Positions 2,149-25,529 of a stretch of 64,000 bases of DNA are shown here, in pieces. The position numbers and the translations under genes are program-made. This stretch comes from Escherichia coli (GTDB lineage Bacteria; Pseudomonadota; Gammaproteobacteria; Enterobacterales; Enterobacteriaceae), in assembly GCF_016903815.1 (NCBI RefSeq), contig NZ_CP069973.1; one strand, 5' to 3'. The notes under the pieces are model-generated. The model worked only from the letters and a program-made list of their open reading frames with translations, was not told where the DNA came from and searched no databases. Numbering within the stretch: position 1 is the stretch's first letter; each line of letters begins with the position of its first letter.

Positions 2149-3303
2149 ATGCTGCTGGTTCTGGTGCTGATTGGTCTTAATATGCGACCACTGCTCACCT
2201 CCGTCGGGCCACTGCTACCGCAATTGCGCCAGGCAAGCGGAATGAGCTTTAGCGTGGCTGCCCTGTTGACCGCTCTGCCGGTGGTTACCATGGGCGGGCT
2301 GGCGCTGGCCGGAAGCTGGCTTCATCAGCATGTCAGCGAACGTCGCAGCGTCGCCATCAGTTTGTTACTGATTGCCGTCGGTGCATTGATGCGTGAGCTT
2401 TACCCCCAAAGTGCGCTGCTGCTTAGCAGCGCACTGCTTGGTGGAGTGGGGATCGGCATCATTCAGGCAGTGATGCCTTCGGTAATTAAGCGGCGGTTTC
2501 AGCACCGTACGCCACTGGTGATGGGGCTGTGGTCCGCGGCTCTGATGGGCGGCGGTGGCCTTGGTGCTGCCCTGACGCCCTGGTTAGTTCAACATAGCGA
2601 AACCTGGTATCAAACACTCGCCTGGTGGGCGCTGCCTGCCGTTGTTGCGCTCTTTGCCTGGTGGTGGCAAAGCGCCCGCGAGGTCGCCTCTTCTCACAAG
2701 ACAACAACCACTCCGGTTCGCGTGGTATTTACTCCCCGCGCCTGGACGCTGGGTGTTTACTTCGGTCTGATTAACGGCGGTTACGCCAGCCTGATTGCCT
2801 GGTTACCCGCTTTCTATATTGAGATTGGTGCCAGCGCGCAGTACAGCGGTTCCTTGCTGGCATTGATGACGCTTGGGCAAGCAGCAGGGGCATTGCTGAT
2901 GCCTGCTATGGCTCGCCATCATGATCGGCGGAAACTTTTGATGCTGGCGCTGGCGTTACAACTGGTGGGGTTCTGCGGCTTTATCTGGCTGCCGCTGCAA
3001 TTGCCGGTATTGTGGGCAATGGTGTGTGGATTAGGTCTGGGCGGCGCATTTCCGTTCTGTTTGCTGCTGGCGCTCGATCACTCTGCGCAACCGGCTATTG
3101 CTGGCAAACTGGTGGCGTTTATGCAGGGGATCGGTTTTATCATCGCCGGGCTTGCTCCCTGGTTTTCTGGCGTGCTGCGTAGTATCAGTGGCAATTACTT
3201 GATGGACTGGGCGTTTCATGCGCTGTGCGTCGTTGGGCTGATGATCATAACCCTGCGTTTTGCACCAGCACGTTTTCCGCAGCTGTGGGTCAAAGAGGCA
3301 TGA
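2149..3303 (+). CDS. cynX: MFS cyanate transporter CynX
   Basis: Hydrophobic multi-TM ORF; start set at internal ATG (MLLVLVLIG...) to give 384 aa; track ORF begins 27 nt upstream at 2122. Confidence 0.85.
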   Translation: MLLVLVLIGLNMRPLLTSVGPLLPQLRQASGMSFSVAALLTALPVVTMGGLALAGSWLHQHVSERRSVAISLLLIAVGALMRELYPQSALLLSSALLGGVGIGIIQAVMPSVIKRRFQHRTPLVMGLWSAALMGGGGLGAALTPWLVQHSETWYQTLAWWALPAVVALFAWWWQSAREVASSHKTTTTPVRVVFTPRAWTLGVYFGLINGGYASLIAWLPAFYIEIGASAQYSGSLLALMTLGQAAGALLMPAMARHHDRRKLLMLALALQLVGFCGFIWLPLQLPVLWAMVCGLGLGGAFPFCLLLALDHSAQPAIAGKLVAFMQGIGFIIAGLAPWFSGVLRSISGNYLMDWAFHALCVVGLMIITLRFAPARFPQLWVKEA

Positions 3304-21249: not shown

Positions 21250-21525
21250 CTATTTAAGATAGGCACGAACCAGTTCAATAGTGTCGTCAACGGATTGGCT
21301 GACTTCGCGGCTGTAGCAGTCATTTCGGTCAAACGTTTCCCGGATATGGCTTTCAAGCACTTCTGCCATCAGCCCGTTAGCCGCGCCCCGAACGGCAGCG
21401 ATCTGTTGGAGTATGGCACGGCATTCGGCATCACCCTCCAGCGACCGTTCCAGAGCATCAATCTGCCCCCGAATACGACGAACTCGAGTAAGGACCTTTT
21501 TCTTCTCTTCCGGAGTACTGGGCAT
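21250..21525 (-). CDS. frmR: Formaldehyde-responsive repressor FrmR (CsoR/RcnR family)
   Basis: 91 aa from [21 protein letters not shown]...; operator palindrome immediately upstream. Confidence 0.93.
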
Positions 21526-21551
21526 TTCGCACCTCATCATCTGCACGCAAT

Positions 21552-21600
21552 ATACTATAGGGGGGTATGCTATATGTCAATGCATACCCCCCTATAGTAT
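21552..21600. promoter_or_regulatory. FrmR operator: 19-bp inverted repeat with G/C tracts
   Basis: ATACTATAGGGGGGTATGC - 11 bp - GCATACCCCCCTATAGTAT directly upstream of frmR; G/C-tract palindromes are typical of CsoR/RcnR-family operators. Confidence 0.85.
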
Positions 21601-21709
21601 ATAACACTGGAGAATAAAATTTATCCGGTGAATGTAGTCGGATAACAAAAAGTAAAGAGGGGCCTAATCGACAGGGAAGGCCGCCCCGGATAGCGGGCGG
21701 CAGAAGCAA

Positions 21710-22483
21710 TCAGAATTTCCAGGTCAGATGGGCTGCAAATTGCAGACCGTTATAATCATCAGTTGGGGTGTCGTACCACACTTTACCTGCCGTCAGCCCG
21801 AGATTAAGTTGCTCAGTCAGCGGTTGAATACGTTGCAAACTGACGCTCTTCATGCTGCCGTAGCGTGTTTCTGGCGTCCAGTCATAGGTGTAAGCGCCTG
21901 TTCCGCGGCTTAGCCATAGTTGCGTATAACCAGTGCCGCGCGGGTCATTCAGACGCACGGAAATCATATTGCTGTAACTACCACCTGCATCGCTGGAGTC
22001 ATAATGGGTATAGCGGTAGCTGGAGATCACCGGGCCAGTATAGAGTGATACGCCGCCTTGCCAGGCATCGACTTCGACATCATCGTAATATTTCGTGTAG
22101 CGATAACCGGTCGTGAAAAGCGTTTTTGGCAACAGTGCCAGGTTAATATCCTGACGAAAATCCTGGCGGGCAAAGACCGGCGTATTATCCGCAAAGGCAA
22201 TACCCGTTCGGGTTGTCAGCCAGTTATTCCATTTATACCAGACCGCACCCTGACCGCGAGTGGCATTGAAATGTTCAGTTTCATAATCACGACGCCCCTG
22301 GGAAAGATTAAAAAGCAGCGTTGCGTTTTCAACTTTCGCCACCAGTTCAGCATACGCTAAATTACGGTTGCCATGATCGCCAGAATAATCGGTAAAATCG
22401 TAGCCCGCGGTAATGGAAGTTAACCCGGCATAAGCGGGCAATGCGCTAAAAATTGCTGCCGCTAATAACGTCCGTTTTATCAT
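21710..22483 (-). CDS. yaiO: Outer membrane beta-barrel protein YaiO
   Basis: 257 aa with signal peptide and C-terminal ...HLTWKF. Confidence 0.9.
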   Translation of the reverse strand: MIKRTLLAAAIFSALPAYAGLTSITAGYDFTDYSGDHGNRNLAYAELVAKVENATLLFNLSQGRRDYETEHFNATRGQGAVWYKWNNWLTTRTGIAFADNTPVFARQDFRQDINLALLPKTLFTTGYRYTKYYDDVEVDAWQGGVSLYTGPVISSYRYTHYDSSDAGGSYSNMISVRLNDPRGTGYTQLWLSRGTGAYTYDWTPETRYGSMKSVSLQRIQPLTEQLNLGLTAGKVWYDTPTDDYNGLQFAAHLTWKF

Positions 22484-22484
22484 T

Positions 22485-23195
22485 TTAATCTCCTGTACGG
22501 ATAAGTTCTTGTCGGAGTGAATAAGTTCCGGTAGGTAAATTACGTTCTACAATCACGCGCGGGCCAAGTTGCGTGTTCGGGGAAATAATTCGCCCAGGCA
22601 AAATAATAACTTGTACGCCAAGGCGTGAACGCTGCCCGATATAACAACCTAATTTATCGCATTCGGTAGCGATAATTCCCTCTGGAGTTCGAACAGACAC
22701 GGGCTGTTGATCCAGACGATGATTACTGGTACGTACTTGTGCGCCCAAATATGCCTGGTTTGCAACTACCGAGTCGGCGATAAAGCATTGCGGACCAATC
22801 GTTGCTTCCGCTTCAATAACCGCATTTTTAATTTCGGTGGCAAAACCAATTTTTACGCCATTGCTGATTATTGTGCCAGGACGAATAAACGCATAATTAC
22901 CTATCAGGCAGTTTGCGCCAATCACTACCGGACCCTGAATAACGGCACCGTGACAAATACGGGTATTCGCGCCGATAACAACTTCACCTGCAGTTTCATC
23001 AATAATTACCTGGTCTGCAATCTGAATATTTTTCTCTTTAACATTAAGCTTCAGAAAGTTTTTCAGTTCCTGTGACAGAAGGTTGGGAATAAGCGGTTGA
23101 CGCTTCCACCAGTGCGGAATAGCGGGTGGGTTTGTCGCGCTGAGGTTCGCGTCCAGTAAAAAAGGCAATAAGTCCATAAATAATCCAGATGGCAT
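22485..23195 (-). CDS. yaiX: Hexapeptide-repeat (left-handed beta-helix) acyltransferase, uninterrupted
   Basis: 236 aa ORF with repeated [LIV]G hexapeptide pattern; 5' end overlaps yaiP by about 150 bp, so true start is uncertain. Confidence 0.7.
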   Translation of the reverse strand: MPSGLFMDLLPFLLDANLSATNPPAIPHWWKRQPLIPNLLSQELKNFLKLNVKEKNIQIADQVIIDETAGEVVIGANTRICHGAVIQGPVVIGANCLIGNYAFIRPGTIISNGVKIGFATEIKNAVIEAEATIGPQCFIADSVVANQAYLGAQVRTSNHRLDQQPVSVRTPEGIIATECDKLGCYIGQRSRLGVQVIILPGRIISPNTQLGPRVIVERNLPTGTYSLRQELIRTGD

Positions 23196-24240
23196 AAGCT
23201 AATAATACATACACAACGGAAAGCGGCGCTAAAGGCACCAACAACCAGCAACGATGAAACCAGGCGCTAAAAGCACCAATAACACAAACTACGCCGACCC
23301 AGATAAGCGGAAACATTGCCAACACCACACCATGCGGCCCGGTGGTGATGAATTCATTAAACCAGGTAGTGAGATAAATCCCAACGCCATAAAGCACAAC
23401 CAACAGCATAGGAAATATACTGAAGATACCGAAGCGGCTAAATAAAAGCCTTTTATGCAGGCGCATACAGACCGCGTAGCCCACAATCCAACGCCGCCAG
23501 CGACGCCATTCCTCACGCGGGCTGTTGCATTCCTGTGGGTATACGATGCAGCGATTCGCCTGCCGAATACGATAGCCGTTTGCCACCAATGTCCAGGTGA
23601 GATCAAGGTCTTCGACTTTAGTACGATCAGAGAAACCGAACTTACGCAATACATCAGTACGGAACATCCCGCAGGCACCGCTGATAATAAACGGTGCGCC
23701 GCCCAGGAGCTGCTGTAGCGTGCGCTTCATAACAATCATCGGCAACTTTACGGTCGCGCGGATGTGCGGTAACAGACCCGCGCCTTTCAACGCAGTAGAG
23801 GGAATGCCGCCTACGGCATCAGCACCGCGCTCTATTTCTGCCAGCATATAGCCCATTCCGTCTTGATCGGGCGGAACATAGGTGTCGGCATCACTTAAAA
23901 AAACCTGGTCGCAGGTGGCGTAATTGAGGCCATTCATCAGCGCACCACCTTTACCGGTATTTTTTTGCGTGACGGCAATAAAGCGGTCGCCCCATTTGCG
24001 TTTGACTTCCGCCATGACCGCTTCGGTATTGTCCGTGGAGCCGTCGTTAACGCAAATTACCCGGCAAAAATAAGGGTTACGCAGTAGATTATCCAGTGAC
24101 TGTGCCAGACACGGGCCTTCGTTATACGCAGGTATAATGGCGTCAATACAACCTTTTTTTGGGCTGGGCTTACGCCTTAACGTACTCAGGAACCATAGCA
24201 ATATTGCTACGGCCATACATATAAATATCCAGGTTTTCAT
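23044..24240 (-). CDS. yaiP: Family 2 glycosyltransferase, membrane-anchored
   Basis: 398 aa; N-terminal TM, GT2 core (NDGSTDNT, DAD) and C-terminal TM segments. Confidence 0.88.
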   Translation of the reverse strand: MKTWIFICMAVAILLWFLSTLRRKPSPKKGCIDAIIPAYNEGPCLAQSLDNLLRNPYFCRVICVNDGSTDNTEAVMAEVKRKWGDRFIAVTQKNTGKGGALMNGLNYATCDQVFLSDADTYVPPDQDGMGYMLAEIERGADAVGGIPSTALKGAGLLPHIRATVKLPMIVMKRTLQQLLGGAPFIISGACGMFRTDVLRKFGFSDRTKVEDLDLTWTLVANGYRIRQANRCIVYPQECNSPREEWRRWRRWIVGYAVCMRLHKRLLFSRFGIFSIFPMLLVVLYGVGIYLTTWFNEFITTGPHGVVLAMFPLIWVGVVCVIGAFSAWFHRCWLLVPLAPLSVVYVLLAYAIWIIYGLIAFFTGREPQRDKPTRYSALVEASTAYSQPSVTGTEKLSEA

Positions 24241-24249
24241 GCAATTTGC

Positions 24250-24921
24250 TCAAAGAATCATTTTATGAATTACAAAGCCTTCACCCAGATCGCTATTGAC
24301 CTGTTGCCCGCGAAATTGTGCAACTGCACGCAGGCGATCATGACGCATATAATCGCGTCGTTCCTGGCTTTTATGTTTTTTTAATGCAGCAAGTTTGACT
24401 GTGAAATATTCTTCTTTAACGGATTCAAAAACCTGAGGCATAAATGAAAGCCAGGTACTCGGGGTTTCGTAGCCGAGAATTTGTGGAATAGTGCGGCAGG
24501 CAACCATTGAAGCTTGATAAACAGCAAGATGATCCTGATGGCGGTCGGCATCATGCATGGTATATACCCGCATGATTTCAACATCAGAAGGAATTTGATT
24601 TTTAATGATGTCTTCCAGGGCGGAAATCATATCATTGAGCTGCAAATGCGCGCGGGTGTCAGCAAAATTAAGATGAATAGTTTGGTGGCACCCTAATATC
24701 TTTAGGGCGTTGCGCGATTCTTCATGGCGATCGATTATTCCATCTGTGCCAGAGTTGCCGGTAGTCATCACCACGGCTGCGATATAAATTCCTTTTTGCG
24801 CAAGACGAGCAAGCGACGCGCCACAGCCCAATTCTATATCGTCAGGATGTGCGCCAATAGCAAGGATACCCTTTCTTTTATTTGCCGAAGAAAGGATGGC
24901 TGAATCTAAAACCTTATCCAC
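24250..24921 (-). CDS. yaiS: PIG-L/LmbE-family N-acetylglucosaminyl deacetylase
   Basis: ORF with AIGAHPDDIELGCG and HxDH motifs; exact start uncertain. Confidence 0.8.
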   Translation of the reverse strand: MDKVLDSAILSSANKRKGILAIGAHPDDIELGCGASLARLAQKGIYIAAVVMTTGNSGTDGIIDRHEESRNALKILGCHQTIHLNFADTRAHLQLNDMISALEDIIKNQIPSDVEIMRVYTMHDADRHQDHLAVYQASMVACRTIPQILGYETPSTWLSFMPQVFESVKEEYFTVKLAALKKHKSQERRDYMRHDRLRAVAQFRGQQVNSDLGEGFVIHKMIL

Positions 24922-25529
24922 TTAATGACACTCCATTTTATTTATTATACTACAAGCACAACGATGCCCGCAGAGACGTAATCTCTGGCACAGACAGATG
25001 CTAATTTTTAAGTGTTAAAAATTACTGATAGCTGAAAAATAAGGGGCTTTCAAGTACGGGGATACGACTGCGTAATCTTTTATGTAGTTCATATGTTAAG
25101 TGTTTGTGTGTTTGGTTTGTATAGTTATTTTGTTTTATATATTGTATTTAGATGTGATTTAGTTTGTCAATTAATTACATATTAAAAATATGTTCTAGGC
25201 ACAAATATGGATTATATACATTATGTGAATGTATTATGTGGTTGATTGAGAATGATACAGTTATATATGCAATGTGAATATAATGATTTCATTATATGCA
25301 TTGCTGTTAATAAAATAAAAGACATTATGTTCTGCTTGTTTATGCATTAATAAAAATGAAGTGCAGTAACTTACTGAATTGTCAGAGTGGGTGTAATTGC
25401 ATATTTAATCTTTCCTTTGCCGCTTTTTTGCTAAGAATAAAATCATCTGTGCGATAACGACTAATTCTTTTAATGAATGTTTTTATTCCTGAATACTGCT
25501 CCTATAACAAGACAGGGGAGCAGACAATC

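Follow-up and report, generated by a model that had tools for sequence, protein, structure and literature searches.

A long same-strand overlap between yaiP and yaiX in Escherichia coli, probably grown by displacement of a start and a stop codon

The genes yaiS, yaiP, yaiX and yaiO of Escherichia coli lie in this order on the minus strand of contig NZ_CP069973.1 (assembly GCF_016903815.1), of which a stretch of 64,000 nucleotides (nt), the window, was analysed. The junction between yaiP and yaiX is the subject of this report; its features are listed in Table 1. An earlier note on the same DNA had remarked that the yaiX frame is open from an ATG at 23195 while yaiP ends only at 23044, and the list of open reading frames (ORFs) and the sequence bear this out: the two frames have 152 nt in common, that of yaiX being +1 relative to yaiP. 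It is also correct, as stated there, that yaiX has no in-frame ATG just downstream of the yaiP stop. The canonical starts of the frame are ATG 23195, ATG 23177 and TTG 23168; between the last of these and the hexapeptide domain, which begins around residue 53 (Pfam), right after the yaiP stop, there is no ATG, GTG or TTG. An open +1 frame of ~50 codons is expected in random sequence with a chance of about 0.09 (a rough estimate), and the bare open frame is weak evidence alone; it is the comparative data that lift the overlap above chance. These data make it likely that yaiP and yaiX form a genuine co-directional overlap, produced by start and stop displacement, with yaiX initiating independently at ATG 23177. 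The meaningful overlap is then most likely 134 nt and not 152 nt. A sequencing error is not at issue, since the overlap sequence is identical across independent assemblies; yaiX with the flanking ends of yaiP and yaiO (1001-nt query) is found at ≥80% coverage in 4455 of 5426 complete E. coli genomes.

Table 1. Features of the yaiS-yaiP-yaiX-yaiO region, in positions of the window (aa, amino acids; CDS, coding sequence; pN/pS, ratio of nonsynonymous to synonymous polymorphism)
Feature	Position	Strand	Remarks
yaiO	21710..22483	minus	outer-membrane beta-barrel gene; start 1 nt past the yaiX stop
yaiX-frame ORF	22485..23195	minus	236 aa; stop 22487..22485 (ORF list and sequence)
Proposed yaiX CDS	22485..23177	minus	230 aa, N-terminus MDLLPFLLD; predicted stand-alone left-handed beta-helix acetyltransferase with family-specific N-terminal segment
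yaiP CDS	23044..24240	minus	398 aa; TAA stop 23046..23044; family 2 glycosyltransferase (GT2), nearest PgaC
yaiS	24250..24921	minus	PIG-L family deacetylase, first gene of the operon; full length here, 223 aa
Sigma-70-like promoter match upstream of yaiS	25141..25170	minus	TTGACA, 18-nt spacer, TACAAT; 11/12 positions; consensus match only
Six extra codons MPSGLF from ATG 23195	23178..23195	minus	ATG only in E. coli and E. whittamii; elsewhere a stop or no ATG
GGA, weak Shine-Dalgarno-like match	23184..23186	minus	6 nt upstream of ATG 23177 (-9..-7); duplex -3.1 kcal/mol
Segment A1, MDLLPFLLD	23151..23177	minus	yaiX codons 7-15 = yaiP codons 355-363 (YGLIAFFTG); pN/pS yaiX 0.13, yaiP 4.43
T6 run CCTTTTTTAC (GCC UUU UUU ACU)	23158..23163	minus	within A1; sole candidate +1 slippery site
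Segment A2	23112..23150	minus	yaiX codons 16-28; pN/pS yaiX 1.55, yaiP 0.15
CGC, Arg of YaiP TRY	23122..23124	minus	ancestral Shine-Dalgarno position; AGG in all 7 distant loci, CGN in enterobacterial ones
CAC, His28 of the 236-aa frame	23112..23114	minus	ancestral yaiX start position; ATG or GTG in distant homologues (M-W-W)
Segment B	23044..23111	minus	WW to yaiP stop; pN/pS yaiX 0.37, yaiP 1.36
YaiP lineage-specific C-terminal tail	23044..23111	minus	last ~22 codons, unconstrained, variable length; yaiP pN/pS 1.36
TGG TGG, WW motif	23106..23111	minus	invariant in 61/61 aligned members (W23, W24 in 230-aa numbering)
GCG, Ala in YaiP	23101..23103	minus	ancestral yaiP TGA stop position (arrangement ATGTGGTGGNNTGA), from the distant-locus comparison
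CTG	23076..23078	minus	RefSeq start of the 197-aa version; UTI89
CTG	23064..23066	minus	RefSeq start of the 193-aa 'acetyltransferase' WP_072170828.1; strains 7/2, cM8a; 23-nt overlap
GTA here, GTG in some strains	23007..23009	minus	RefSeq 174-aa start; O25b strain; no overlap

The product of yaiX is predicted to be a member of the hexapeptide-repeat, left-handed beta-helix (LbH) acyltransferase superfamily. It scores 64.3 bits against the Pfam model Hexapep (PF00132; cutoff 27), and the AlphaFold2 (AF2) model of the 230-aa form, with a mean predicted local distance difference test (pLDDT) value of 89.6, matches the LbH domains of ST0452, GlmU and LpxD. The nearest solved structure is the C-terminal domain of Sulfolobus tokodaii ST0452 (PDB 5z09 and 2ggo; 33% identity, 185 columns, E = 1.5e-11). 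A bifunctional or archaeal GlmU was considered and rejected, all scores being far under cutoff (the best of the NCBIfam GlmU models gives 127.6 bits for a cutoff of 292, with only profile positions 233-393 aligned) and the nucleotidyltransferase half being absent. Similarly, YaiP reaches 99.5 bits against TIGR03937 (PgaC), far below the equivalog cutoff of 422.3; it was not retained as a PgaC/IcaA poly-beta-1,6-GlcNAc synthase, and is a GT2 member only.

The N-terminus of the family gives the first indication of where yaiX begins. Homologues at ~50% identity are ~206 aa long and start with MWW or VWW, aligned to H28-W29-W30 of the 236-aa frame. Counted from the last base of the yaiP stop, the two Trp codons of this WW motif lie 63-68 nt upstream, and any start that retains them implies an overlap of at least 68 nt. 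The earlier note had looked to an alignment of orthologues, in which conservation only downstream of the yaiP stop, together with a conserved alternative start codon there, would speak against initiation within yaiP; the alignment gives the opposite picture.

The ancestral arrangement is preserved in distant relatives. A scan of the genome collection gave 15 loci, seven of which are distant proteobacterial ones, including a Pseudomonadota metagenome-assembled genome (MAG), Pseudomonas viridiflava, Acinetobacter and Sphingomonas. In all seven, the yaiP homologue ends in ...GREPxRDKPTRYxxVVx followed by a TGA stop, and yaiX starts as ATG/GTG-TGG-TGG 14 nt before the end of this stop, with the same +1 relation (arrangement ATGTGGTGGNNTGA). 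The codon for the Arg of TRY, AGG in 7/7, places a GAGG 7 nt upstream of the yaiX start. Synonymous variation in these loci falls over the last few codons of yaiP. The M/V-W-W start is also found in two candidate-phyla-radiation loci that have no yaiP upstream. An upstream ATG at the [Y/H]G site, the position of ATG 23177 in the window, already exists in three of the seven distant loci, often followed by stops in the yaiX frame. To note, tblastn detects yaiX-frame similarity upstream of WW in the distant loci, up to residue 1-4. It was discarded as coding evidence, being a by-product of the YaiP motif REPxRDKPTRY in frames that often contain stops.

The enterobacterial-type copies, which come from E. 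coli, E. whittamii, Citrobacter, Superficieibacter, Enterobacter, Salmonella, an Ignatzschineria MAG and others and of which 19 loci were aligned, have lost all three of these signals. The Arg of TRY is encoded by CGN and the GAGG is absent; the ancestral start position reads CAC, CCN or similar; the ancestral TGA of yaiP is gone, replaced by GCG in E. coli. YaiP carries an extra tail of 3 to about 28 residues that is poorly conserved among these loci, and its stop varies in position from one to another, the overlap measuring 83-134 nt. Both frames are nevertheless intact in all 19 loci. The yaiX-frame ATG corresponding to window position 23177 is present in 19/19; it is formed by the conserved Tyr/His-Gly codons of YaiP (TAT GGN) and is immediately preceded by a stop codon in four loci. 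The earlier suggestion that yaiX initiates within yaiP thus gains from the WW motif and from this conserved and, as detailed below, selected ATG 134 nt before the yaiP stop. The ATG that was named, 23195, fares less well: it is found in Escherichia only, and the peptide MPSGLF that it adds is probably not part of the conserved YaiX protein. A further ATG, in the third frame, shares bases with the yaiP stop (TAATG); the ORF that it begins has 12 codons and lies at 23045..23007 of the minus strand, MLKRKIFRLQTR. It was rejected as a yaiX start, as it lies in the wrong frame and the type of the yaiP stop varies among genera (TAA, TGA, TAG).

Selection along the overlap was followed in the 16-locus main clade, leaving out L019-L021, a Salmonella/Enterobacter sub-clade. 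The background consists of 344 windows of 10 codons from non-overlapping yaiP, with a third-position pairwise diversity of 0.491 (sd 0.054, minimum 0.348). In the 10 codons that start at ATG 23177, third-position diversity of yaiP is 0.069, a value as low being found in 0/344 background windows. The dip begins at ATG 23177 and ends sharply past yaiX codon 15; upstream of this ATG, over 23178..23195, the synonymous sites of yaiP are unconstrained, and no dip occurs at the homologous segment in the distant loci (0.69 vs 0.66).

Three segments with alternating selective regimes follow one another along the overlap (A1, A2 and B in Table 1; for comparison, pN/pS is 0.17 in yaiP-only and 0.29 in yaiX-only sequence). 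In A1, YaiP has L, F, P, S or I at residue 357, yet the yaiX codon opposite invariably specifies Leu, through four different codons; at residue 358 YaiP has I or V and yaiX keeps TTG. The two Gly codons of A1 are GGA in 19/19 loci, GGA representing 18% of the Gly codons in these genes, and elsewhere in yaiP none of the 87 invariant four- or six-fold columns retains a single codon over the 19 loci. This substitution pattern indicates that purifying selection in the yaiX frame dominates the nine codons of A1. Conversely, in A2 a poorly constrained YaiX linker lies opposite the highly conserved YaiP motif REPxRDKPTRY, and the third-position diversity of yaiP is 0.45. In segment B, codon periodicity changes over to the yaiX frame. 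Double constraint, as judged from these patterns, is limited to ~27 nt, the rest of the overlap being carried by one frame at a time. The AF2 confidence of YaiX parallels this division: pLDDT is 78 for residues 1-10 and 57 for residues 11-20, followed by blocks of 81, 89 and 89 and then by values above 95, the lowest being in A2 and those of segment B between 81 and 89.

The sequence context of ATG 23177 is compatible with initiation. It is AU-rich, with a local 63-nt fold of -3.9 kcal/mol compared to a regional mean of -12.9 (sd 4.7), and resembles that of yaiP's own start (duplex -1.9, fold -4.1 kcal/mol). The other candidates have different contexts: ATG 23195 has no Shine-Dalgarno match (duplex +0.9 kcal/mol), nor has CTG 23078 (+1.9 kcal/mol); CTG 23066 has an AGGA just 1 nt upstream; ATT 23120, without a match, falls within the window of strongest predicted structure (-17.5 kcal/mol). 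A consensus scan of 22400..25200 returned no promoter-like site within yaiP, the site upstream of yaiS being its sole match.

Because the outgroups keep the 14-nt overlap and the boundary codons can be located, the origin of the overlap can be explained by start and stop displacement, and the following course of events is proposed. The ancestral yaiX opened with M-W-W, its ATG or GTG lying 14 nt within yaiP and being served by the GAGG of the yaiP Thr-Arg codons. The enterobacterial-type lineage lost this GAGG (AGG to CGN) together with the yaiP stop and the start codon, which is CAC in E. coli. YaiP now runs on into yaiX, having gained a variable, unconstrained tail, and translation of YaiX would have been captured by the pre-existing upstream ATG provided by the YaiP Tyr/His-Gly codons, with the addition of ~22 residues. 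The first nine of them (MDLLPFLLD) later came under protein-level selection, the next 13 forming a free linker. Initiation at ATG 23177 would be independent and would take place on a single yaiS-yaiP-yaiX-yaiO transcript, from a weak GGA in an unusually unstructured region, giving the 230-aa product. The comparisons show the geometry, the ancestral arrangement, the disappearance of the three signals and the alternation of selective regimes; that ribosomes do start at ATG 23177 is probable on the strength of these data.

Several observations weigh against this start and against the strength of the A1 signal. The ATG is partly forced by the Tyr/His-Gly codons of YaiP; these genes preferentially encode Tyr by TAT (0.74), and conservation of the ATG alone is weak evidence. 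The Shine-Dalgarno match of 23177 is weak (3 nt). The signal in A1 comes from 16 sequences that are related to one another, with perhaps 5-6 independent substitutions spread over two codons. Several of the loci are closely related, and some probably represent paralogues acquired by horizontal transfer. In L019-L021 the N-terminal peptide is different (MDYQASLPD, MELHHSLPD), and three lineages possess an ATG 1-3 codons before WW. Only one of the five AF2 models is confident, the other four being low. Finally, literature searches for yaiX and for yaiP with yaiO brought up only the EcoGene note on a repaired yaiX and a 2026 paper on the 71-aa K-12 fragment, and no ribosome-profiling, start-site or N-terminal proteomic data for strains with intact yaiX; K-12, the source of most profiling and proteomic data, has a yaiX split by IS2.

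The best surviving alternative places the start of yaiX further downstream, at CTG 23066, CTG 23078, GTG 23009 (in some strains) or the near-cognate ATT 23120, with an overlap of 0-77 nt; the upstream open frame would then be a by-product of yaiP coding. RefSeq annotations of thousands of genomes rely on such starts, several lineages carry CTG, GTG or ATG at 23066, with AGGA just upstream, and the yaiX-frame similarity at residues 16-28 is indeed a by-product of YaiP conservation; the lineages with an ATG shortly before WW point in the same direction. The RefSeq starts at 23066, 23078 and 23009, however, all leave out the WW motif, invariant in 61/61 members, as well as the segment in which the pN/pS of yaiX is 0.37. 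They also disagree between E. coli strains, three non-ATG codons being in use, and other gene callers predict the 230-aa protein starting with MDLLP (cluster P0001, 1737 member sequences). Their contexts are poor, with an AGGA only 1 nt away from 23066, no Shine-Dalgarno match at 23078 or at the structured 23120, and the ancestral GAGG lost. The near-standstill of yaiP synonymous change that begins exactly at ATG 23177 is left unexplained, as is the pattern of yaiX-synonymous substitutions there. The non-canonical start proposed in the earlier note is what RefSeq annotates, yet it removes conserved sequence; as the principal start of yaiX it is unlikely, while such downstream starts are possible as minor isoforms.

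Initiation in Escherichia at ATG 23195, or at both ATGs, would give a 236-aa product and the full 152-nt overlap. Both E. coli and E. whittamii have this codon, followed by an open frame. It is not conserved beyond Escherichia, a stop lies between both positions in four loci, its Shine-Dalgarno duplex is unfavourable, and the yaiP synonymous sites vary freely over the codons that it would add. This start is accordingly quite improbable.

It could also be argued that yaiX is decaying, its open frame being an untranslated relic of a gene that has lost its start, or that the overlap is an annotation artefact made of a 5' and a 3' extension. The ancestral start, Shine-Dalgarno and stop are all gone, yaiX of K-12 is interrupted by IS2 and its yaiS by a nonsense codon, and among 968 overlaps longer than 60 bp a survey accepted no co-directional one as real (Palleja et al. 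2008, PMC2478687). By the length-versus-orthologue rule of that survey, yaiP/yaiX would be flagged as a 5'-and-3' extension error. Across genera, yaiX nonetheless has a pN/pS of 0.29 over its body and of 0.37 in segment B; most E. coli genomes (the 4455 of 5426 given above) keep the region intact, with the same sequence in independent assemblies; the whole four-gene operon is conserved, and a repaired yaiX gives a phenotype (PMC3531124). As for a 5'-extension artefact of Palleja classes i and v, WW and the segment that follows it are conserved family-wide, and residues 7-28, absent in distant orthologues, show conservation and selection inside the enterobacterial clade. At the sequence level both extensions are real, and the upstream part of that of yaiX is, by its substitution pattern, under purifying selection of its own. 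Decay or artefact is thus very improbable.

Recoding, also raised in the earlier note, is the least probable of all: ribosomes translating yaiP would shift +1 at the T6 run to make a YaiP-YaiX fusion, with yaiX devoid of a start of its own, and the +1 frame of yaiX and a run that permits perfect tRNA-Phe re-pairing and is invariant in 13/16 main-clade loci would suit this, but selection already acts on three yaiX codons upstream of the run (D-L-L kept while YaiP has L/F/P/S/I and I/V) and starts exactly at the ATG, the run is interrupted in L004, L026 and L019-L021, the A site holds no slow or stop codon and no Shine-Dalgarno stimulator lies 3 nt upstream, an Rfam scan of 21500..25500 at E ≤ 1 found no element in the overlap, no fused GT2-LbH homologue occurs among the matches listed, and the invariance of the T6 run is fully accounted for by the AFFTG and PFLLD protein constraints.

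A more far-reaching proposal may be added to initiation at ATG 23177. Beyond two superposed protein constraints, the complete nucleotide invariance of A1 and its T6 run might constitute a regulatory device that sets the YaiP:YaiX ratio, or MDLLPFLLD might dock YaiX on the C-terminal region of YaiP, for which the same stretch of DNA codes. Such a device could be a low-level +1 shift giving a synthase-acetyltransferase fusion, or a gating of initiation at 23177 by ribosome traffic on yaiP. This is a long shot; if true, it would represent functional dual coding in a chromosomal, non-viral setting, and the same-strand overlap concerned would be over twice the length of any that the 2008 survey accepted.

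Loss and replacement of start and stop codons is a recognised origin of unidirectional overlaps (PMC3887535), and the longest real co-directional case accepted in the 2008 survey is holD-rimI of Enterobacteria, with 32-56 bp (PMC2478687). Like holD-rimI and the displacement model, yaiP and yaiX are adjacent same-strand genes of an operon whose stop and start moved to pre-existing codons of the neighbour, and the length of the overlap is lineage-specific, the outgroups keeping a short one. They differ in that the overlap is much longer, 134 nt, or at least 68 nt on protein-conservation grounds, and in that both boundaries moved, leaving three segments with alternating selective regimes.

The 14-nt overlap of the distant loci, with its Shine-Dalgarno inside the upstream gene, is akin to short coupled overlaps of the ATGA/TAATG type. 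In E. coli, by contrast, the yaiX start is 134 nt before the yaiP stop; because of this distance, reinitiation by terminating ribosomes is implausible and initiation must be de novo. Unlike termination-reinitiation, it would occur on an mRNA that is simultaneously being translated in another frame. In prfB, +1 frameshifting relies on a slow or stop codon in the A site and on a Shine-Dalgarno stimulator 3 nt upstream of the shift site. The yaiP/yaiX overlap shares with it a downstream +1 frame and a homopolymeric run; it has neither an A-site stop or rare codon nor the Shine-Dalgarno stimulator, and possesses a conserved ATG and a selected segment upstream of the run.

At the protein level, YaiX resembles the acetyltransferase part of GlmU through its hexapeptide repeats and its modelled LbH fold. 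It differs in being stand-alone, without a nucleotidyltransferase half, and in having its own N-terminal WW segment and, in enterobacteria, the MDLLPFLLD extension. The operon recalls PgaABCD systems: it has a membrane GT2 synthase with PgaC/IcaA as best match, a deacetylase and an outer-membrane beta-barrel, and its repair leads to clumping. The deacetylase is, however, of the PIG-L and not the PgaB type, the barrel is YaiO, an additional LbH acetyltransferase is present, and the PgaC score is far below cutoff.

The four-gene set (PIG-L deacetylase, GT2 synthase, LbH acetyltransferase and YaiO barrel) is complete in the enterobacterial loci with called genes, as seen in an operon-level comparison of loci L004-L013 and L016-L029. 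The synthase-acetyltransferase pair, with its order kept, reaches Pseudomonas, Acinetobacter and Sphingomonas. On several enterobacterial contigs the set adjoins genes for fimbriae or adhesins (Fimbrial, MrpH/PapG). Two copies that have diverged from each other occur in Citrobacter braakii ATCC 51113 (L005, L008), and the label of one homologue, P0051, places it on a plasmid. In combination, these features suggest a module for adhesion or exopolysaccharide that is mobile. Downstream of yaiX, yaiO has a strong Shine-Dalgarno (-7.4 kcal/mol) inside the yaiX 3' end. In Enterobacter sp. PGRG2 (L026), the called yaiX (241 aa) overlaps the yaiO call by 86 nt (3141..3226) because of a C-terminal extension of YaiX; this overlap could be real or come from a miscalled yaiO start. 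Between frmR and yaiO, a hairpin-like element at 21534..21617 matches miRNA models weakly and below threshold, on either strand, with E 0.017-0.15; it probably represents a terminator or operator with a palindromic sequence.

In K-12 the operon has two lesions, the IS2 that splits yaiX and a truncated yaiS: the K-12 yaiS (L003) differs from that of the window by a nonsense mutation, CAG to TAG (Q186*), and encodes 185 aa instead of 223 aa. The full-length yaiS of strain 7/2, identical to the window, is marked by RefSeq as an incomplete pseudogene. An ORF of 39 aa annotated as YkiC (Pfam PF23686) lies at 24265..24384 on the plus strand, antisense within the 3' end of the full-length yaiS frame. 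Repair of yaiX yields a clumping phenotype that requires yaiP (EcoGene group, PMC3531124). Overexpression of a 71-aa K-12 'YaiX' fragment was described to confer multidrug resistance (2026 paper, PMC13058169). This 71-aa 'YaiX' differs from the native protein: it is the N-terminal piece left by the IS2 truncation, with a downstream codon annotated as its start.

The yaiP/yaiX pair would thus be a well-supported exception to the 2008 survey, with a datable ancestral state and frame-specific signatures of selection. It shows how an overlap may grow, through the loss of a Shine-Dalgarno, a start and a stop and the capture of an ATG already supplied by the neighbour's Tyr-Gly codons. Expression constructs or structural work based on the RefSeq annotation would use an N-terminally truncated YaiX. 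Correct gene boundaries are needed for repairing and studying this operon, as the IS2 in yaiX silences a clumping, exopolysaccharide-type operon in K-12.

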